Below are positions 4,261 to 43,535 of a stretch of DNA of 45,875 nt, in pieces. The first letter of the stretch is position 1; the number at the start of each line of letters is the position of its first letter. Position numbers and translations under genes: made by a program. The notes beneath the pieces are model-generated. The model saw nothing but the letters and a program-made list of their open reading frames with translations. It ran no database searches and was not told where the DNA came from. This DNA is from a virus. The DNA lies in IMG/VR virus record IMGVR_UViG_3300048919_000216, positions 1 to 45,875 of that record; one strand, written 5' to 3'.

Positions 4261-4375
4261 GCGTTAACGTCAATGTGCGTCAATGATGACGCAGTATAAC
4301 GCGTCAACGTCAACGTGCGCGCTTGTTAACGCGCCATAAAGAGTTATGCTGCATCTTAACGCTACAACGTTAAAC
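4261..4375. repeat. Centromere-like iterons (GCGTYAACG family) upstream of parA
   Basis: Forward copies: GCGTTAACG 4261..4269, GCGTCAATG 4277..4285 and GCGTCAACG 4301..4309. One reverse copy lies at 4325..4332. A 7-4-7 inverted repeat TGCGTCA-ATGA-TGACGCA lies at 4276..4293. Confidence 0.6.
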
Positions 4376-4390
4376 ATGAAGGACGCGAGC

Positions 4391-5065
4391 ATGCCTGTCA
4401 TCGCAGTAGCAAACCCTAAAGGCGGCGCTGGGAAGTCTACCAGCACGCTAGTTCTAGCAACGACGCTCGCGCGCCAAGGCGCGTCAGTCACGGTTTTGGA
4501 TTGCGACCGCAATCAGCCGATAGCCGGATGGAGGGCAGGGGGGTCTAAAAATCCTGTAGTGGTTGACAGCGCCATCGACGAAGAAAGCTTTAAAGAGAAG
4601 CTGGACCACCACCGCCGCAAGTCGCAATTCGTCTTCGTGGATCTGGAAGGCACCGCCAACCGCCTCATGTCCCGCGCACTCTTCCGCGCTCATCTGGCGA
4701 TCATTCCTATCCAAGCAAGCCCAACAGATGCCGAGCTGGCCGCAAAGGCGATCCATCTGATCAAAGACGAGGGGGAGTCGTTCGATAAGGTCATTCCTTA
4801 CCGCGTTCTTTTCACGCGCACGTCGCCACAGATCAAAACCAAGATCGAACGCCAGATTTTCGAGCAGTTGAGTGGCGGGGAAATTCCCCAGTTCCGAAAC
4901 CACCTGAACGAACGCGCTGCCTATAAGAGCATGTTCTTTCATCAGCTCGACTTGGAGGAGATGGACCCCGCCGAGGTCAATGGCTTGCCCCAAGCCCGAG
5001 ACAACGCGCTGAAACTCACCGCCGAGCTTATCGATATGATTGCAGAGAAGGATGCCGCAGCATGA
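4391..5065 (+). CDS. parA: ParA partition ATPase (small type-Ib, deviant Walker A)
   Basis: The Walker A motif is [13 protein letters not shown] and there is no N-terminal HTH. An AAGGA RBS precedes ATG 4391. In-frame alternative starts exist at 4346 and 4376. Confidence 0.9.
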
Positions 5066-6350: not shown

Positions 6351-6641
6351 ATGAGCACTTTTAAGACATCACCGCAGTTCGAAAGCTGGTTGCAAAACCT
6401 GAAAGACGCCAAGGGCCGCGTTCGTATCATTGCCCGCATCCGGTCGGCAGAGCACGGCAACTTCGGCGATTGCCAGCCGGTGGGCGAGGGTGTTTCGGAA
6501 ATGCGCATTCACTTTGGCCCCGGCTACCGCCTGTACTACACGCGCAAAGGCGAGACCGTTTATTTCCTGCTGATCGGCGGCGACAAGTCCAGCCAGAAGC
6601 GTGACATTCAGAAGGCCATCGAAATGGCCCGCACCCTGTGA
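6351..6641 (+). CDS. Type II toxin, RelE/ParE superfamily (HigB-like 'addiction module killer' family)
   Basis: 96 aa. The motifs F..WL..L.D...RVRI.ARI......GNFGD..PVGEGVSE.RI..GPGYR.YY......V..LL.GGDKS.Q..DI..A match that family. Confidence 0.85.
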   Translation: MSTFKTSPQFESWLQNLKDAKGRVRIIARIRSAEHGNFGDCQPVGEGVSEMRIHFGPGYRLYYTRKGETVYFLLIGGDKSSQKRDIQKAIEMARTL

Positions 6642-6652
6642 AAGGAAGGATC

Positions 6653-6946
6653 ATGACAGAGTTTAAGAAATTCGACGCATCGGAATATCTGCACAACGAT
6701 AGTGACATGCTGGAATATCTGTCCGTCGCCATGGAAGATGAAAACCCGGACGTATTTATCACGGCGTTGAGCGACGTCGCCAAGGCGCGCGGCATGGCAA
6801 AGATCGCGGAAGCGTCCGGTCTTGGCCGTGAAAGCCTGTACAAAGCACTTAAACCCGGCTCCAAGCTTCGCTATGAGACGATGCACAAAATCGTTCACGC
6901 GCTAGGCTTCCAGCTTGTTTTAAAGCCCAGCCTAAGCGCTGCCTGA
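6653..6946 (+). CDS. Cognate HTH antitoxin (HigA-like 'addiction module antidote' family)
   Basis: F.A.EYL......L.YL..A.ED..P......L.DVA.ARGM..IA...GL.RESLYKAL.P....R..T..K...ALG..L. An AAGGAAGG RBS precedes ATG 6653. A GTG at 6638 is an alternative start. Confidence 0.85.
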   Translation: MTEFKKFDASEYLHNDSDMLEYLSVAMEDENPDVFITALSDVAKARGMAKIAEASGLGRESLYKALKPGSKLRYETMHKIVHALGFQLVLKPSLSAA

Positions 6947-8949: not shown

Positions 8950-9235
8950 CTTTGATTGCCTGTTCGAGTTGGGCTTCGAGCTTCTGTTGGGTGAGGGCGT
9001 CGGCCACCGCCCGCTTGCGGTAGTCTTCGAGCGCCAGCGCAGCGGCGTTGCGCTGGCGTTCCATTTCGGCGGCCTTCGCTTCAGCGGCTGTCTTTTCCGA
9101 AAGCAAAACGTAGCCTTTGAGCAACGCCGCATCATGTGAGGAGAGCCACAGCCGGAAGCCGCCAATAGCCAGCAAGACGCAAATGATGAGGGCGGCTAAG
9201 CGCCCTAGGAGTGACGTCGGGAGAAGGAAGCTCAT
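8852..9235 (-). CDS. Inner-membrane spanin (i-spanin, Rz/LysB-like)
   Basis: N-terminal TM segment LLGRLAALIICVLLAIGGF, then a coiled coil. ATG 9235 overlaps the endolysin stop (ATGA). Confidence 0.7.
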   Translation of the reverse strand: MSFLLPTSLLGRLAALIICVLLAIGGFRLWLSSHDAALLKGYVLLSEKTAAEAKAAEMERQRNAAALALEDYRKRAVADALTQQKLEAQLEQAIKDDNQNMDDGDYRWSDDDRRWLCEQRGEAYCRR

Positions 9236-9819
9236 AGCCCGCTCACGCACAGCTCGGCTTCACCGACGCGTAGGCCGTCGCCCATCTCGCGACGGTTGAC
9301 CAGGCCGCGTACGATCCGCTTACCTGCCTTGTTGAAGGCCGTCTGAGCTTCGCAGGCAAACCGCCACATGCTGGCTTCGATGCGACCCTTTGCGGTCGAT
9401 CGGCACCATGCGTCGACCCCGAAATTGTAAGCGCCCGATATCATCGAAGCCCGAACGCTGACCGGCGCTTTCGCGAGGTTTGGCGAGCATTCCATGATCT
9501 TCTGGTAGTAGTCGTCATGCACCCGGCGAAGCAGCATGTCGAAGCATTGCGCCTTCGTCTTCGTCATGCCGGGACCGATGCCCTTCGTTTCTCCGTAGCA
9601 AATATCCCAGATCTTGGCGAAAGGATCCCAATGGGATTTCAGAACCAGCCCCTCCCAAGGGATGATTGCTTTTTCGACTGCCAGTATAACGGCAGGATCC
9701 ATCTTCTGCTCTGTGGCGTAGCGATCATAGATCGCATAGCTGCCACTGGCGATGCCAAGGAGGACGGAAGCAATTGCAGCTCTACCGCGCTTCGTCGGCG
9801 TGATCTTGTTGATCGGCAT
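9232..9819 (-). CDS. SAR endolysin, phage lysozyme (GH24, P21-R-like)
   Basis: N-terminal weakly hydrophobic Gly/Ala/Ser-rich segment AAIASVLLGIASGSYAI. The catalytic region is WEGLVLKSHWDPFAKIWDICYGET (E-x8-D ... CYGxT). Confidence 0.85.
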   Translation of the reverse strand: MPINKITPTKRGRAAIASVLLGIASGSYAIYDRYATEQKMDPAVILAVEKAIIPWEGLVLKSHWDPFAKIWDICYGETKGIGPGMTKTKAQCFDMLLRRVHDDYYQKIMECSPNLAKAPVSVRASMISGAYNFGVDAWCRSTAKGRIEASMWRFACEAQTAFNKAGKRIVRGLVNRREMGDGLRVGEAELCVSGL

Positions 9820-34380: not shown

Positions 34381-34603
34381 CGGATTTCATTTCCTTCACA
34401 GCATCGGCAATGACTTTGTTAGCGAGCCAGTCGGATTGGACTGGTCCGTCTTTGTCTGCCGTTTCTACGCGGGAATAATTTTCCCCAATGAGCCTTACCT
34501 CGCATACGACCTTTGAGCTGCCGGGTGAGAAGCTATGCAAAAGGCGAGCACCACGAATGAAATCCGTAGCCGCGTTTCCATGCAGGTCCATCCGAAACCA
34601 CCC

Positions 34604-34776
34604 GTGCAAGCGTGCGTGCAGTGTGCGTGTATGCGTGTACCGCTTTTCGAAAGTGCAACTAGGCAAATCCCGCAGTACCCCTGTCCCGTATGGTGGTTTT
34701 TCCCCGATTACGGTCCCTAAATGGGGGGGGTGGGGGTAGGTTGTTGCGATTGTGCAACGGCCCATGGGGCATGGGG
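34604..34776. other. Candidate cos region (cosB-like repeats plus G-tracts and inverted repeat)
   Basis: TGCGTG occurs three times (34613, 34624, 34632). G8-T-G5 lies at 34723..34736, GTTGC-N6-GCAAC at about 34740..34757, and a tandem CATGGGG x2 at 34763..34776. All lie in the 459-bp non-coding gap upstream of terS. Confidence 0.4.
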
Positions 34777-34839
34777 TATACAGATCCCGGATTTCGGTCG
34801 CAGGGCAGCAGGTAAGCGGCCATAACTTTTCTGTATTTC

Positions 34840-35412
34840 CTACGGCACAAGTTTGTTCAAGACGGCGATAACCCTTTGATCAAGCAGCGGAGCCGCAGTT
34901 CGATGGAAGGCTTCGACCGTTGCGCCTTGCGACATTTCAACCGGGATGAATACGCCTGACCGAGCGAAGGTAATTTTGCTGCCCGATTTGTTAAGTCGGT
35001 AGTAAACATGGCCGTTGAACTTCGGGACAGCCTTGCGATTGGGAAACACGCCACCACGCATGAAACTTCCGGGATACAGCGTTGCTTTTCCGAACGGCCT
35101 TGCGACGACACCGGCTGGTGTTTCCTTTGGGCGCAGATATTTGAGGCGGATGTTCCCGCCTCGCGTGATCATGTCGTAGACGTATCGACCGGGCCGAGCG
35201 CCAAGCGGATTGCCGATCGCCTTCACGATGACGGCGCGGGGCAAGCCGGTTTGCTTCGTCAGAGTGCGGATAACAATCGTTTTCGAGCGATTGCCGACTT
35301 GGTTGACGATCCGGGGGAGGACTTTAGGAAACTTCGTGTTGAGAGCTTCGAGCCGCTTACCATACTTGGCAAGGTTTCTATCGGCCCAGCGCATGTTGAT
35401 GATGCCTGTCAT
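34840..35412 (-). CDS. Virion/tail completion protein (resembles lambda gpZ / HK97 gp10-type family)
   Basis: 190 aa from MTGIINMRW with a GGAGG RBS. The pattern ...VLPRIVNQVGNRSKTIVIRTLTKQTGLPRAVI.... and the basic beta-rich C-terminus resemble that family. It is the first gene after the terminator. Confidence 0.45.
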   Translation of the reverse strand: MTGIINMRWADRNLAKYGKRLEALNTKFPKVLPRIVNQVGNRSKTIVIRTLTKQTGLPRAVIVKAIGNPLGARPGRYVYDMITRGGNIRLKYLRPKETPAGVVARPFGKATLYPGSFMRGGVFPNRKAVPKFNGHVYYRLNKSGSKITFARSGVFIPVEMSQGATVEAFHRTAAPLLDQRVIAVLNKLVP

Positions 35413-35441
35413 GACCGAGCCTCCGGGAAAACAAACCCCAT

Positions 35442-35474
35442 ACAAACGCAAAAGGCGACCGGTTAAGGTCGCCT
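35442..35474 (-). terminator. Strong intrinsic terminator between the NusG-like gene and the late structural genes
   Basis: On the minus strand AGGCGACC-TTAACC-GGTCGCCT is followed by TTTTGCGTTTGT. Confidence 0.75.
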
Positions 35475-35639
35475 CTTGAACATAGCTTGCGCACTGGCCT
35501 CGAGTCGAAGTCTCAAACGAGACCGCCGAGGCTGGGTTTCCGATCGCTTCGCCCTGTAACCTGCTGGTTAGCTCTGGCAGCGTCTAGCGCTGGCATGTGA
35601 GGGTTTACGCATCGGAAGTGGCCGTTGACCGAATGACTC

Positions 35640-36299
35640 TCACAACTTCTGGAGAAACGCAAGATCAATTTCCACGTCATGGGCAAACTCGCCATACCCT
35701 TCGACACACACGTTTACGCGTGGATTTCGACCGCTCTTAACCCGCACCACGACGCAGTTGCTGCCCGCGAACAGCCCATGCGTGATATACGCCCTCTGCC
35801 CCTGCCCGATCGAGCGATCGACCGGCATGCGCTCGACGTTGACAGCCTCAAAAACCCTCTGAAAAACAAGCATTTGCTTTTCAGGGATTTCCGTATAGCG
35901 CACCCCATCACCGATGAAATCGACCACGCCTTTTACCTGCTTGATGGCATGAAATGCGGCGGCGATCGGCAGCATCCGAACGAAAACGTAGCCGCCAAAC
36001 ACGGGCCGCTCACTTACGATCTTCACGCCCCTTTTGATGGTTTGGCACTGCTCGCGCAGAACAAAAACCTCAACACCGGCTGTGGACAATTTGCTTTCGA
36101 TCGTGAAGTCGGCACCACCTGAGACCGAAAAGCAGAACCACCGCGCATCATTTGGTGTCGCTTCGAATCGCACGGCCTTGGCAGGTTCAAGCATCATTGC
36201 GTACAAACGTTCCTCTCTTGTCATTCGCGATCGGGCGAAGTCCGATATCTCTTTCGTGGCGCAAGCCCCTGCCTGCAAACCTGATTTCTTTCCCCGCAT
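35640..36299 (-). CDS. NusG/RfaH-like transcription elongation factor paralog (NGN + KOW)
   Basis: The NGN pattern is WFCFSVSGGADFTIESKLSTAGVEVFVL...RPVFGGYVFVRM...AIKQVKGVVDFIGDG. The KOW-like part is GQRAYITHGLFAGSNCVVVRV...VCVEGYGEFAHDVEIDLAFLQKL. The N-terminal start is uncertain. Confidence 0.75.
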   Translation of the reverse strand: MRGKKSGLQAGACATKEISDFARSRMTREERLYAMMLEPAKAVRFEATPNDARWFCFSVSGGADFTIESKLSTAGVEVFVLREQCQTIKRGVKIVSERPVFGGYVFVRMLPIAAAFHAIKQVKGVVDFIGDGVRYTEIPEKQMLVFQRVFEAVNVERMPVDRSIGQGQRAYITHGLFAGSNCVVVRVKSGRNPRVNVCVEGYGEFAHDVEIDLAFLQKL

Positions 36300-38026: not shown

Positions 38027-39831
38027 GCGGCCACCGCCTGCACGGCCAAATGGCCGCAGTTGGCGGCGGCAAGCGCTCTTGCCACGGGCGGGCATACGCT
38101 GTTGCCGACACAGGACACTTGCACATCCTTGGAGAACGGCACCCAAACCGGACCGCCATTGTGGCCGATCTGCGAGCGGTCATAGTAGCCGTCGATCTGG
38201 TAATCAGTCGGGAAGCCTTGCGCGGTGTACAGTTCGCGAGGCGTGAGCATTCGCATGCCGATATCGACCACGACGAAGGTCACTCCGTCGATTTCGAGCG
38301 TCACAAACTCGCGTTCGTCCCAAAGCCCGAAGGATCGGAGGAAATCGGCCACCTGCCGCGCCCGAGCTGCTTGCGCTTCCGTAAATGGCGGAACATCGAG
38401 CGTCGCCTCGACATGCGCGTGACGATCGTTGCATGTCGCCGTCCGCATAGGGGTGTCGTAAGCTGCACCCTCACCCGTTCCATAATAGGCTTGCATGTAG
38501 GGCGTTATCAGCCGCGTCTTGCCCTGCCCTTCCGGCATCACAGTGCCGCATGGCTGGTCCATCCCGTGACCCGTCGATGTGCCGAAGTCTCGCGCCACAT
38601 AGGCGGAAACAAGCTGCTGGTGGCTTCCTGTTTGGGTGATCGCGGAAAGCGGCGCATTGGCCGACCTTCCCGGATTGACACCACCAATGCGCCGACTGTC
38701 GCTATTGTGCTGCGCCATGTAGGCACAAAAAACGCCGTTCTGATCTTTGCTACTTGCCGTGACGGTATGCGCTGGCTTTTCAACGGAGCGGCTTGCCCCG
38801 CCCTGCTGTGCGTATGTCAAAACCGGAGCGACGACGGCATGCTTGATGCTTCCGGCCACCACTGTACCTAGCGGCTGATCGACGCTCATGCAGCGCGGTG
38901 CTTGCCCCAGCCGCTCGCCATATCCAAGCTGTACCAGGTAGGGCCGTTTCGCCTTCAGGACGAAGCGATCGAAACCACGCGCGACCCGTGCCATGGAATT
39001 GTACGCCAGCGGACGCTTGGCAACGAGGCCATGCTTTTCCTTAATCTCAACGGCGCTATCGAAGATGCTGGGGCAAGGCAGGCTGTAATCAATGCAATCG
39101 CCAACGATCCGCCAAGGTAGCTTGCGACCGGCGATAACGTCCGGATCATCCGGGCAGCCATGGGTCGGCGTAGGCCAGACGATCGGCTGACCATCAAACC
39201 GGATCACAATAAACAGCCGCTTTCGAATAGTCGCCGCGCCGAACTCGTAACCACGCAATTCGCGGCTTTCCATCTTGCCGCCAAGCTTCCGGATTGCCTT
39301 GCACCATCTGCGGTACTCCTGACCTTTCCTTTTGGGGTCAGGCATCAACCCACGTGGCGTTTCGATCAGCGGCCCGTAATCCTTGAACTCCTCGACATTT
39401 TCCATCATGACGACATCGACCTTGCCGCCGCTCTTCTGGATCCGCTCTATCCAGCCGGGAATAATCCAGCACAGGTCACGAATATTGCGCTCGACAGGCT
39501 TGCCGCCCTTCGCCTTGCTGAAATGCTTGCAGTCTGGCGAGAACCAGGCGAGCCCGATATGCTTGCCCCGCAGATGGTCGAGCGGATCGACCTTATAGAC
39601 GTTCTCAGAAAGATGGATCGTGGCAGGATGGTTAGCCGCATGCAGCGCCAGCGCCGCCGCATTGTGGTTGATGGCGTAGTCAGGAGAACGACCGAGCGCT
39701 TGCTCGATACCAGTAGACGCCCCGCCGCCACCAGCGAAACTGTCAATGATGTACGGCAGGCCATGTGCGTTAAGTGCGGGCGTCGCAGCCAGCAGGGTGC
39801 TGGCAAAGAGTGCGCCGACGTGAGCGTTCAT
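38023..39831 (-). CDS. DNA (cytosine-5) methyltransferase with an unusually long target-recognition region
   Basis: Motif I is DSFAGGGGAS, motif IV is SPDCKHFS (catalytic Cys), motif VI is ENV, motif VIII is RKRLFIVI, motif IX is TPRELYTAQGFP and motif X is GNSVCPP. About 320 aa separate motifs VIII and IX. Confidence 0.9.
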   Translation of the reverse strand: MNAHVGALFASTLLAATPALNAHGLPYIIDSFAGGGGASTGIEQALGRSPDYAINHNAAALALHAANHPATIHLSENVYKVDPLDHLRGKHIGLAWFSPDCKHFSKAKGGKPVERNIRDLCWIIPGWIERIQKSGGKVDVVMMENVEEFKDYGPLIETPRGLMPDPKRKGQEYRRWCKAIRKLGGKMESRELRGYEFGAATIRKRLFIVIRFDGQPIVWPTPTHGCPDDPDVIAGRKLPWRIVGDCIDYSLPCPSIFDSAVEIKEKHGLVAKRPLAYNSMARVARGFDRFVLKAKRPYLVQLGYGERLGQAPRCMSVDQPLGTVVAGSIKHAVVAPVLTYAQQGGASRSVEKPAHTVTASSKDQNGVFCAYMAQHNSDSRRIGGVNPGRSANAPLSAITQTGSHQQLVSAYVARDFGTSTGHGMDQPCGTVMPEGQGKTRLITPYMQAYYGTGEGAAYDTPMRTATCNDRHAHVEATLDVPPFTEAQAARARQVADFLRSFGLWDEREFVTLEIDGVTFVVVDIGMRMLTPRELYTAQGFPTDYQIDGYYDRSQIGHNGGPVWVPFSKDVQVSCVGNSVCPPVARALAAANCGHLAVQAVAA

Positions 39832-41180
39832 ACCGCACCGCCTTCAGGCGCACCGGCCTGGTTGCCCCAAAAGTCCCATTTGCCGTTCAGCCGGATATCA
39901 CCAGCGGCAAGACTTTCTTTGCGCTGGAATAGTTCGAGCTTGCGCAGATCCGGCCAGAGCGCGTCGATCCGCTCGGCAAACCAGACGGGCTTGCGGCTGT
40001 GGTCGCTCTTTACTTCGGAATAAAGGCTATCCGGTTGCGTTCCCTCTGCCGGGGCAAGCGAGATATCCCCGCGCTTTCCTATCAACAGGATTTCATGGCG
40101 ATCGCGAACCCACCGGCCCATGCCGATGTGAACCTTGTCCCAAGCCATGCAGGTGACGTATTGGAAGCCCCATGCTTGCAGCACGGTGATGCCATCCACC
40201 AAGCGGTTCGCCGTCACCCAAAGGTATAGAACCGCGTCGCGCGTGAATGGTGATTTCTCGCCAGCGCACAGCGCCGCGATTTCTTCAACCGTCATGGAAG
40301 GGTATTTCAGCCCCTTGTCCTGACCGGTTTCGTCGCTCCAAGCTTCCTGCTTCCATGGCGGATCTGCGTATCCGATAGCATAGGCGGCACGAGGCATTTC
40401 GGCAGATGAGCGCCGCCCTTGTTCGGCGATCAGCCCCACCATGCGCAAACGGGATTCGCGGCTGCTGGCACGCTCTGCCGTGCGAACAACCTTGTGTTCG
40501 GCCTTCACTGCCTTGTCAGCAGCCAGAAGCGCACGGACATAGCTTTCTTGCGCCTCAGCGGTTTCGATCTTCGAAAGGTGATCGAGTGTCACGCCATTGT
40601 TGTGACGCGTCCCGATGAGCTGCTGAATAACAGCCTTTGAGATTTTCTCGCCACGCGCTACGTCCCGTCGGATAGACCGCTCATCCCTACCGGTCGCTTC
40701 CGCAGTCGCGACGGCAAAAGTCTTGACGTCACGGACAACTTGTCCGCCACGTCCCAACGCCGCATTAGCCGCTCTGGCCTGTGCGACACCCTTTGCGGTT
40801 TCGGGAAACTTGATCAGGTGCAGTTCCTTGCGCCGCGCCATAAACAACGCCCGCTCGGCAACACTCAGATCCGATCGGATCAAGTTTTCGTCGATTTCCC
40901 ATAGCTCACGGTCGGTCTCGTCCCCCAGCTCGTGGAAGCAAAGGATGCTGGACATTCCAAGACGGGTGCAGGCTTCAAGGCGATGACCGCCAGCGCTCAA
41001 ACGAACGGCGTCATCATCCTCTTTCCCGAAAACCGTGATCGGCGTTTTGAGGCCGACGCTACGGATGGAATCCATGAAGGAAAGCACTTTGGCTTCGTCC
41101 AGGCTGCGCAGCCTGTCGCCCACCACGATTTTTTCAATGCGTCTAGCAATCGCTATTTTCTTTTTCGGTTCGAGGGTCAT
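39828..41180 (-). CDS. ParB-like nuclease domain fused to an MT-A70-family N6-adenine methyltransferase
   Basis: The N-terminal ParB/Srx fold shows LKTPITV...LSAGGHRLEA. The C-terminal part has YADPPWK (DPPW) and downstream MT-A70 blocks (LYLWVT, GFQYVTCMAWDK). Confidence 0.85.
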   Translation of the reverse strand: MTLEPKKKIAIARRIEKIVVGDRLRSLDEAKVLSFMDSIRSVGLKTPITVFGKEDDDAVRLSAGGHRLEACTRLGMSSILCFHELGDETDRELWEIDENLIRSDLSVAERALFMARRKELHLIKFPETAKGVAQARAANAALGRGGQVVRDVKTFAVATAEATGRDERSIRRDVARGEKISKAVIQQLIGTRHNNGVTLDHLSKIETAEAQESYVRALLAADKAVKAEHKVVRTAERASSRESRLRMVGLIAEQGRRSSAEMPRAAYAIGYADPPWKQEAWSDETGQDKGLKYPSMTVEEIAALCAGEKSPFTRDAVLYLWVTANRLVDGITVLQAWGFQYVTCMAWDKVHIGMGRWVRDRHEILLIGKRGDISLAPAEGTQPDSLYSEVKSDHSRKPVWFAERIDALWPDLRKLELFQRKESLAAGDIRLNGKWDFWGNQAGAPEGGAV

Positions 41181-41407
41181 AGCTCACCCATCGTTCGAAC
41201 ATAGCAGCCGTGGTCGATCGCCTTCAGCGTTGCGCTCACCTGCGCAGCGGTTCGACCGCGCTTCAGGTGTGTTTCAGGCGTAAGCGGGTTAAACTGAAAA
41301 GCCGCGCTGGACATGGCGCGGCGAACATCGGCGGGAAGAGCATCAAAGCGGCGCATCAGCGCGGCCTTTTCCGGCAATGGCGGCGGCAGGCGATCGGGTC
41401 CATCCAT
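41177..41407 (-). CDS. Hypothetical early protein (76 aa)
   Basis: Coupled to its neighbours by overlapping start and stop codons. Confidence 0.5.
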   Translation of the reverse strand: MDGPDRLPPPLPEKAALMRRFDALPADVRRAMSSAAFQFNPLTPETHLKRGRTAAQVSATLKAIDHGCYVRTMGEL

Positions 41408-42677: not shown

Positions 42678-42756
42678 AATATGTCGATAAACGACAATAA
42701 AAGTCAACAGCTTTAGTTGTCGATTATCGACATATCCTATTTGTCGAAAATCGCTA
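42678..42756. promoter_or_regulatory. Right immunity control region: promoter TTGACT-N18-CATATT (minus strand) plus three operators
   Basis: The operators are TGTCGATAAACGACA 42682..42696, TGTCGATTATCGACA 42718..42732 and TGTCGAAAATCGCTA 42742..42756. The -10 is at 42678..42683 and the -35 at 42702..42707. TATAAA at 42755..42760 lies 6 nt before the repressor ATG. Confidence 0.7.
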
Positions 42757-42766
42757 TAAAAATACC

Positions 42767-43399
42767 ATGTCAAATCAAATCAAAAAAATCCGGGAAATGG
42801 CTGGCAAGACGCAGGCGGAAGCGGCTGCGGTGCTTGATATTACAACCGAAAATTATAACCGGCTTGAAAAAGGAAAGACGCAGATAACTCTTTCCAAGCT
42901 GGAGAAATTGGCCGAGTTTTTCCACAGGCAACCCGCAGAACTCATCGCGAGCCATGGTAACGTGAGGACGGTTCGAGTACGTCAACACGTCCAGGCGGGC
43001 GAATGGGCCGAATCGTTGATCTGGGAAGATGATGACTGTTACGATGTGATCGTGCCGAACGATCCAGAGTTTCAAAACGTAATGCTTTATGGCGCGGAAA
43101 CGCGCGGACCATCAATGAATAAGCGATATACCGAAGGCGCAGCGGTAATATATACCGACATTATCGAAACCGGAGAGTCGCCGGTTCCGGGTCGCCGCTA
43201 CATCGTAGAGCGCGAGCGCGCAGACGGAATGCGCGAGGCGACAGTTAAGACGTTATACAAGGACGACGACGGGAAATTCTGGCTTCTGCCAGAGTCGACA
43301 GATCCTCGGCATCAAACCCCTATCGACCTAAGCGGCGGTGATGGCGATATCGTCCGTATCGTCGGAAGGGTGGCGTTCTCGGTCCAGCGCGAGAGCTAA
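42767..43399 (+). CDS. CI/LexA-like prophage repressor (XRE HTH + S24 peptidase)
   Basis: The N-terminal HTH is IREMAGKTQAEAAAVLDITTENYNRLEKG. There is a QAG/EW Ala-Gly cleavage site, a GPSMN serine motif and TVKTL (Lys). Confidence 0.9.
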   Translation: MSNQIKKIREMAGKTQAEAAAVLDITTENYNRLEKGKTQITLSKLEKLAEFFHRQPAELIASHGNVRTVRVRQHVQAGEWAESLIWEDDDCYDVIVPNDPEFQNVMLYGAETRGPSMNKRYTEGAAVIYTDIIETGESPVPGRRYIVERERADGMREATVKTLYKDDDGKFWLLPESTDPRHQTPIDLSGGDGDIVRIVGRVAFSVQRES

Positions 43400-43481: not shown

Positions 43482-43535
43482 TGTCGAAAATCGACATATA
43501 GCCGCTTGACTTGTATTGTCGGTTATCGACATATT
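43482..43535 (+). promoter_or_regulatory. Left immunity control region: promoter TTGACT-N18-CATATT plus two operators
   Basis: The operators are TGTCGAAAATCGACA 43482..43496 and TGTCGGTTATCGACA 43517..43531. The -35 is at 43506..43511 and the -10 at 43530..43535. This module is 30/32 identical to the right promoter module. Confidence 0.7.

Follow-up and report, generated by a model that had tools for sequence, protein, structure and literature searches.

The Q, N, Ogr/Delta and Mor/C systems are the best-understood examples of late-gene control in temperate phages. In lambda, late expression requires polymerase to get past a strong terminator at the end of a leader of about 200 nucleotides (nt), and Q is loaded at the promoter-proximal, sigma-dependent pause of a dedicated late promoter. 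Among the specialised NusG paralogs of bacteria, RfaH and UpxY are loaded at their ops and opsX sites via a hairpin in the non-template DNA strand (PMC11685472). The E. coli ops non-template hairpin is 5'-GCGGTAGC, of the form GCG-GT-AGC, and the ops pause used by RfaH has no pause hairpin; in Bacteroides opsX, an RNA pause hairpin is located directly beside the non-template DNA hairpin 5'-YGCGNAGCR (PMC11685472). For LoaP, a leader RNA hairpin, a pause and read-through of a strong leader terminator have been described (PMC12691694). The present analysis deals with a NusG-like gene, and with the structured leader, ops-like motif and terminator behind it, in a stretch of viral DNA of 45,875 nt (IMG/VR record IMGVR_UViG_3300048919_000216, positions 1 to 45,875). 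This whole stretch is called the window below; positions refer to it, and genes and elements are on the minus strand unless marked (+).

The locus is probably a late-gene switch made up of a specialised phage NusG paralog and a composite cis element directly behind its gene. The NusG-like gene (35640..36299, 219 amino acids (aa)) is the final gene of a lambda-like early operon, and its start codon was found 7 nt past the stop codon of the upstream replication-initiator gene. It is followed by a conserved leader element of about 200 nt (198 nt, 35445..35642) that runs from the stop codon through an intrinsic terminator, and then by about 28 kb of co-directional late genes, from 35412 to approximately 7134. 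Processive antitermination by the NusG paralog is suggested by the conserved order of gene, leader, terminator and late operon. A preliminary description of the locus, made from the letters alone, had already reported a protein with NGN and KOW patterns as the last early gene, a strong terminator with an 8-bp GC stem at about the present distance, a long block of head, tail and lysis genes downstream, and the lack of a Q-, Ogr/Delta- or Mor/C-like activator. These points were all confirmed, the last among the other open reading frames (ORFs) of the window that were tested. Its central proposal, that a NusG paralog at the position of lambda Q gates the late genes, received strong comparative support from the conserved order; its ops site had to be corrected, and the leader RNA, which it had missed, had to be added.

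Assignment of the protein was based on the ORF, domain and family profiles, comparison to the PDB, and an AlphaFold2 model searched with Foldseek. Pfam PF02357 (NusG/NGN) matched residues 53-144 with an E-value of 2.4e-12 and 47.6 bits (cut-off 22.2); a separate Pfam KOW match was not obtained for the 219-aa protein. PHROG 6386, 'transcription antiterminator', matched with E=5.6e-37. When the family profile was compared to the PDB, residues 53-217 aligned to residues 8-179 of E. coli NusG (E=1e-10), with the block GY(V/I)FV of the phage protein placed on PGYVLV of E. coli NusG, and the match to RfaH was weak (E=2e-3). The AlphaFold2 model (mean predicted local distance difference test (pLDDT) score 76) comprised an NGN domain followed by a five-strand KOW barrel, the strands of which cover residues 169-218 at a pLDDT of 80-91. 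Comparison of a structural model with RfaH had been recommended in the preliminary description; the NGN fold matched the NGN structures of NusG and RfaH, which were the top Foldseek matches, with Spt5 returned as well. The C-terminal domain (CTD) was modelled as a beta-barrel in a single prediction from a 12-sequence alignment, a result compatible with fold switching. The domain order is therefore an extension at aa 1-50, NGN at aa 53-144 and a KOW barrel at aa 165-219 (approximate start), and both hallmarks of the NusG/Spt5 superfamily, an N-terminal NGN domain and a C-terminal KOW beta-barrel, were found.

Scores against the curated NCBIfam models of NusG and its paralogs were all well under the cut-offs. 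The best paralog model was that of UpxY (NF033644; 66.2 bits, E=3e-18, cut-off 100), followed in rank by NusG, LoaP (NF033641; 43.1 bits, cut-off 125) and RfaH (TIGR01955 and NF006534; 39.7 and 36 bits, cut-offs 144.5 and 124). Because all of these scores fell below the cut-offs, the phage protein is a member of the NusG superfamily outside every characterised paralog family. Family-specific features were seen in the N-terminal extension (codons at 36150..36299), as judged from family alignments, the model and the start of the PDB alignments. The extension carries the conserved block RMTRxERLxAMxLEPAKAxRF and has no counterpart in E. coli NusG or RfaH, the PDB alignments starting at about residue 53; in the model, residues 1-17 had a pLDDT below 50, and short helices were predicted at residues 20-46. 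The protein family comprised 122 representative clusters at E<1e-10. A peptide-pattern scan of genome contigs yielded a single close locus (L004); the other 16 NusG paralogs that it detected were distant and belonged to other phyla.

The structured RNA of about 200 nt between the gene and the late operon, to which the preliminary description made no reference, is the most distinctive part of the system. This gap was better conserved than the proteins, and it remained recognisable where the NusG-like protein shared 30-37% identity with that of the window. RNAalifold, applied to the relatives, proposed several helices with compensatory changes. The resulting set comprises nine helices: a long-range helix PL (35617-35611 with 35544-35538), which encloses a three-way junction; PJ, three bp stacked just outside P1; P1 (35603-35600/35555-35552), P1a (35592-35588/35582-35578) and P1b (35570-35566/35561-35557), which form the junction; the outer and inner stems of P2; a motif hairpin; and the terminator. 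The part enclosed by PL (35538..35617), defined by RNAalifold and pair counts, is referred to as the 5' RNA domain, and all of its helices showed compensatory changes. PL was paired in 98.6-100% of cases, and one of its positions was occupied by UA in 33, GC in 22, AU in 4 and CG in 3 sequences. Hairpin P2 (35497..35532), identified by folding and covariation, has an asymmetric internal loop between its two stems, folds at -17.3 kcal/mol and is a candidate pause hairpin; in the 64-sequence alignment A6, four of seven outer and all six inner pairs had changed on both sides.

Statistical support for the structure came from two alignments. Across 27 distant viral sequences, 92% of the cells were paired, versus 23-45% in controls with slid partners, and compensatory changes were present in 24 of 45 pairs. 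The covariation score of this set was 0.274, compared with 0.150 for shuffled alignments, and none of 500 shuffles reached 0.274. With 64 sequences, 31 of the 45 base pairs showed compensatory changes and 93% were paired. G-U wobble pairs were frequent and are compatible with the gene-sense strand only; the structure is therefore assigned to RNA of that strand. A covariance model, R1, was trained on the 27 distant sequences, none of which belongs to the clade of the window. It gave a single match in the window, over the full length of the model at 35445..35642 (73.5 bits, E=5e-20). Rfam 15 had no matching family in the window at gathering thresholds, and a permissive Rfam scan of 35380..35720 returned chance-level matches only (E>1). 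The comparative alignments make the leader a strong candidate for a hitherto undescribed family of structured RNAs.

Two other readings of the leader were examined and rejected. Pairing of a conserved 5' block, UGAGAGUCAU, with the sequence after the motif was not maintained between clades (by inspection), and translational read-through of the NusG-like stop codon would meet in-frame stops soon after in the relatives. Two GANTC sites, the CcrM-type methylation target, were noticed in the leader: GAGTC at 35639..35635, just past the stop codon, and GACTC at 35506..35502 on the 3' side of P2. The latter (CGAYTC) is kept in most distant clades, but most members of the window's own clade lack it. 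The phage has a ParB-MT-A70 methylase gene at 39828..41180.

The terminator (35442..35474) was identified by hairpin scan and folding. Its GC-rich stem of 8 bp, AGGCGACC/GGUCGCCU at 35474..35467 and 35460..35453, can be extended to 12 bp; the loop has 6 nt, and the U-rich tail, UUUUGCGUUUGU, reaches to 35442. The terminator starts 166 nt past the NusG-like stop codon, folds at -20.5 kcal/mol (z=-4.9; 0 of 200 shuffles equally stable) and ranked first among the hairpins in a 16-kb scan. Of the 64 aligned elements, 59 retained its helix; the positions of this helix were paired in 98.9% of cases, and compensatory changes were seen.

Directly past the 3' end of P2 lies a near-invariant ops-like motif, CAGTGC-GCAA-GCTATG (35481..35496), with the core GCG-CA-AGC at 35492..35485; it occurs once in the window. 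Its general form is (C/A)AG(T/A)GC-NNNN-GCTATG. A piece of the motif had served as the pattern of the first viral scan, which makes its invariance in that set circular, and conservation was re-measured on the protein-retrieved loci: GC-NNNN-GC-TAT(G/A) was present in 45 of 46 distinct elements. The spacing between P2 and the motif was fixed, with no insertion or deletion in 57 sequences, and the distance from the motif to the terminator varied. As an RNA hairpin the motif was weak (-2.2 kcal/mol, z=-0.13) and did not covary; together with its invariance, this points to sequence-specific recognition, and the motif is a candidate loading or pause site for the NusG paralog. The T-G at its end agrees with the pyrimidine-G step found in consensus pause sites. 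In sequence form, P2 and the motif together resemble the composite ops site of UpxY.

The loops of the motif (35490..35487 in the window) fell into two classes. Among the protein-retrieved elements, GNNA loops were GTAA (9), GATA (5), GAAA (5) and GCAA (3), and TACN loops were TACT (11), TACA (10) and TACC (2). Both classes were present within each major element clade and could mark distinct specificities. The ops-like sequence named in the preliminary description, GGCGGTCTCGTT (35527..35516), does exist and agrees with the ops 12-mer at 9 of 12 positions. It is a part of P2, namely the 5' arm plus the loop; its sequence differs between relatives, with covariation, and it was rejected as the ops signal. 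The conserved candidate lies about 25 nt downstream, at 35496..35481.

Linkage of gene and element was assessed across loci. The starting loci came from GenBank phages (three), metagenomic or isolate contigs (ten) and a single contig of Rhizobium rhizogenes. In all of them a helix-turn-helix (HTH) initiator gene precedes the NusG-like gene, and the late genes follow after a gap that spans about 205-330 nt in the loci with a called next gene. Viral contigs were then scanned with a 14-base piece of the most conserved block and filtered with an nhmmer profile, resulting in 67 element-positive loci. A NusG-like ORF ended just upstream in 64 of these, and the other three had less than 200 nt of upstream sequence. 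A motif-independent set of 42 further viral loci was obtained by querying with three NusG-like proteins alone. R1 matched 41 of the 42, and in each case its match began where that of the protein ended, at the stop codon; the sole miss was a contig ending inside the gene, so that all 41 loci with downstream sequence carried the element. In total, at least 99 loci were found in alphaproteobacterial phages and phage-plasmids. A 41-kb circular plasmid of Rhizobium rhizoryzae had the same layout with a weak element match.

The order of NusG-like gene, leader, terminator and packaging genes was kept in every related locus examined, even at 24-35% protein identity. The large terminase began 0.8-2.3 kb past the element in 30 of 40 loci with enough downstream sequence; four loci sampled from the other ten had divergent TerL_ATPase genes or a protease-capsid fusion. 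Over all loci with a match, the terminase was of the GpA type in 29 and of the TerL_ATPase type in 11, and the first gene past the terminator differed between loci. The NusG-like gene, leader and terminator thus travel as a unit ahead of different late modules, among them two or more unrelated types of packaging module, which is what one would expect of a switch.

Features shared with RfaH/ops are the pairing of a specialised NusG paralog and a short element within a long leader, the form of the motif core (GCG-NN-AGC as against GCG-GT-AGC, then a T-G step), and the expected terminator read-through across a long, horizontally mobile operon. The full ops 12-mer, GGCGGTAGCGTG, is however not present, the phage motif matching it at 6 of 12 positions within the hairpin core only. 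Moreover, the phage protein scored far under the RfaH cut-off, its CTD is predicted to be a beta-barrel instead of an autoinhibitory alpha-hairpin, it is encoded immediately upstream of its site, and a structured RNA domain of about 120 nt plus a hairpin come before the motif. UpxY is the best-scoring curated family; the fixed arrangement of P2 and motif fits the opsX composite in sequence architecture, the motif core resembles the Bacteroides hairpin, and in both cases the factor gene adjoins the target operon. In contrast to the phage gene, upxY is the first gene of its operon and lies downstream of its ops site; the phage motif has two bases (NN) between the GCG and AGC arms where Bacteroides has one, and the setting is a phage instead of a polysaccharide locus. 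In the leaders of the Bacillus dfn and mln operons, too, an RNA element and a strong terminator go together with a NusG paralog, LoaP, which provides a precedent for RNA in loading. LoaP, however, binds a small UNCG hairpin, whereas the phage RNA is multi-helical and its motif loops are GNNA or TACN, with no UNCG. With lambda Q/qut/tR' the locus shares the position in the genome, as the final gene of the early right operon just ahead of the late genes, and the logic of a leader of about 200 nt closed by a strong terminator. The protein fold is unrelated to that of Q, and no dedicated late promoter of the lambda Q kind was found. The same protein family in the same synteny is present, by annotation only, in the Sinorhizobium phages phi2LM21 and phi3LM21 and the Rhizobium phage vB_RleM_PPF1, where it is listed in GenBank as 'transcription antitermination protein NusG'.

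According to the proposed mechanism, polymerase would transcribe the NusG-like gene and the leader early after induction and halt at the terminator. Once the protein has accumulated, it would bind polymerase paused at P2 and the ops-like site, where the NGN domain may read the small non-template DNA hairpin GCG-NN-AGC in the manner of RfaH and UpxY, and the leader RNA may contribute to loading as it does for LoaP. The modified polymerase would then pass the terminator and continue through the approximately 28 kb of head, tail and lysis genes. Such a switch would be a delayed feed-forward circuit, the delay being built in because the factor gene lies upstream of its own loading site.

Several observations weigh against this mechanism. 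The activity of the protein, which is under the cut-offs of all characterised paralog families, is deduced from fold and context. No promoter for the leader was identified, and read-through from the early operon is assumed. Taken alone, the leader of the window folded no better than shuffled sequences (z=-1.19), the structure being derived from comparison. One related element (L153) was without the motif, and no protein column clearly covaried with loop class (maximum mutual information 0.42 bit). The terminator hairpin was absent from five element copies (L092, L044, L147, L112 and L058), which retained the RNA domain and the motif; these may be rearranged or decaying prophages, or differently regulated variants. 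Furthermore, intrinsic terminators were not enriched in the late region (21 found, 21.9 expected). Owing to this lack of an excess, any need for processivity beyond the leader terminator may concern Rho.

Other explanations were weighed on the same data. The terminator might merely end the early operon, with the late genes transcribed from a separate, unrecognised promoter, the RNA serving as a 3'-untranslated-region element or stable small RNA, and the NusG-like protein having its role elsewhere, e.g., on host genes, or in opposition to Rho during early or late transcription. A conserved, structured 3' end of about 200 nt that closes in a strong terminator is indeed typical of stable small RNAs, and lambda makes a short terminated RNA from pR'. 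Only about 30 nt, however, separate the terminator tail from the first late ribosome-binding site (RBS), the promoter scan reported no sigma-70-like site there, and the strict adjacency of NusG-like stop codon, element and packaging gene across shuffled modules would be hard to explain if these parts were functionally unrelated. This explanation is considered unlikely. Invariance of the motif, its lack of covariation and its weakness as an RNA hairpin suggest recognition by a factor and speak against the leader RNA itself being the regulator, be it a put- or EAR-like polymerase modifier without a dedicated protein or a ligand- or factor-sensing attenuator, with the NusG-like protein as a general helper. 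The element was also never found without the NusG-like gene where upstream sequence existed, and no upstream segment complementary to the 5' arm of the terminator was noticed across clades on inspection, without a systematic test. In favour of such an RNA, the pause hairpins known from ops sites are very much smaller than the 5' domain, and the HK022 put and EAR RNAs are structured antiterminators; we nevertheless give this explanation little credit.

It is highly improbable that the conserved stretch is mainly a DNA signal, i.e., a late promoter, a methylation-controlled site, or a packaging or replication site. This explanation draws on the two GANTC sites together with the CcrM-like ParB-MT-A70 methylase of the phage, and on the resemblance of GCTATG to CTATAT, the alphaproteobacterial -10 consensus. 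The extensive compensatory base-pair changes, including G-U pairs, instead show selection on a sense-strand RNA, and the GANTC sites are missing from most of the window's own clade. The motif was rejected as a -10 box, no -35-like hexamer being visible by eye at a distance of 16-18 nt from GCTATG, and the scan reported no promoter near the leader. The linear PPF1 record ends in the next intergenic gap and not in the leader gap.

Beyond antitermination by the NusG paralog as such, the multi-helix leader of about 200 nt might be a cis-acting RNA of a new class that the paralog needs as its partner, loading taking place by joint reading of the non-template DNA hairpin and the folded nascent RNA. 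We advance this extension tentatively and regard it as somewhat doubtful. If true, the RfaH/UpxY mode and the LoaP/lambda-N mode of loading would be joined in one element, and the GNNA and TACN loops would define separate specificities among co-resident phages. The role of the leader beside the ops-like DNA motif is directly testable.

The gene itself has been annotated before, as PHROG 6386 and, in GenBank records of Sinorhizobium and Rhizobium phages, as transcription antiterminator or NusG. A survey from 2025 listed a transcription antiterminator ORF in all phiLM21-like prophages, near the end of the early region of phiLM21. In the literature searched, outside of which most papers in subscription journals lay, neither a functional test of the gene, nor a description of the leader RNA, motif or terminator, nor a phage NusG paralog controlling late genes was found. 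What is new is the system, probable NusG-paralog antitermination at the lambda-Q position of a phage with an unusually elaborate leader. To our knowledge, no NusG paralog has been characterised in the alphaproteobacteria. Widespread phages and phage-plasmids of this class appear to use the universal elongation factor fold in place of the well-studied late regulators. With the factor gene, candidate loading site and terminator all within 900 bp, the locus is a compact, portable system for studying the recruitment of NusG paralogs, and factor and site, as a self-contained cassette, could be put to use for timing or insulation when Rhizobium and Agrobacterium are engineered.

The remaining gene content is that of a temperate phage of the Agrobacterium/Rhizobium type, with the layout of a lambda-like temperate myovirus of about 46 kb. 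By PHROG assignment, a CI-like repressor gene is located at 42767..43399 (+), and Cro-like and CII-like genes diverge from it. The tightly packed early operon contains the cro-like and CII-like genes, the ParB-MT-A70 methylase, a C5 methylase, a gene without assigned function, the HTH replication initiator and the NusG-like gene. The putative start of this operon is beside the cro-like gene, where two overlapping matches to sigma-70-like promoters (42678..42723) were detected by consensus scan only. The hexamer pairs TCGACA-18-TATTGT and TTGACT-18-CATATT were seen in inverted arrangement on both flanks of the CI-like gene, at 42678..42723 (-) and 43491..43535 (+), which points to promoter-operator modules that have been duplicated and fire outwards. 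Between the CII-like gene and the first methylase, a terminator-like GC-rich hairpin with seven G-C pairs and the tail TTTTCAGTTT was observed at 41301..41322. Lying inside the early operon upstream of the NusG-like gene, it could be a tR1-like checkpoint. The early regions are mosaic: the window has phrog_10379 where its close relatives L021 (2047..2700) and L029 (2066..2719) carry an opposite-strand HicA/HicB toxin-antitoxin pair, between the methylase/PAPS-reductase genes and the replication initiator.

The first late gene (34840..35412, 190 aa, ATG at 35412) is preceded by the RBS GGAGG at 35424-35420 and encodes a Neck1/tail-completion-like protein (PHROG 27, E=3.4e-13); homologous 190-aa genes occupy the equivalent position in L021, L029, L030 and L032. 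It is followed by a gap of 460 nt and then by terS, terL, portal, protease, major capsid, sheath, tape measure, tail and endolysin (9232..9819) genes. The cohesive or packaging end is probably located in this second long non-coding gap, between the Neck1-like gene and terS (34381..34839), which transcription of the late genes would then have to traverse. The linear record of Rhizobium phage PPF1 stops about 90 nt past the homologous Neck1-like gene.

Among the window ORFs tested, none was assigned as an integrase. Genes on the opposite strand include a ParA-like partition gene (4346..5065 (+)) and a toxin/repressor pair (6351..6946 (+)). The source of the window may be a phage-plasmid rather than an integrated prophage. 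The nearest records in the plasmid database were a 46,243-bp plasmid of Agrobacterium salinitolerans, with 82% identity over 61% of the 28-40 kb region, and a 40,977-bp circular plasmid of Rhizobium rhizoryzae.

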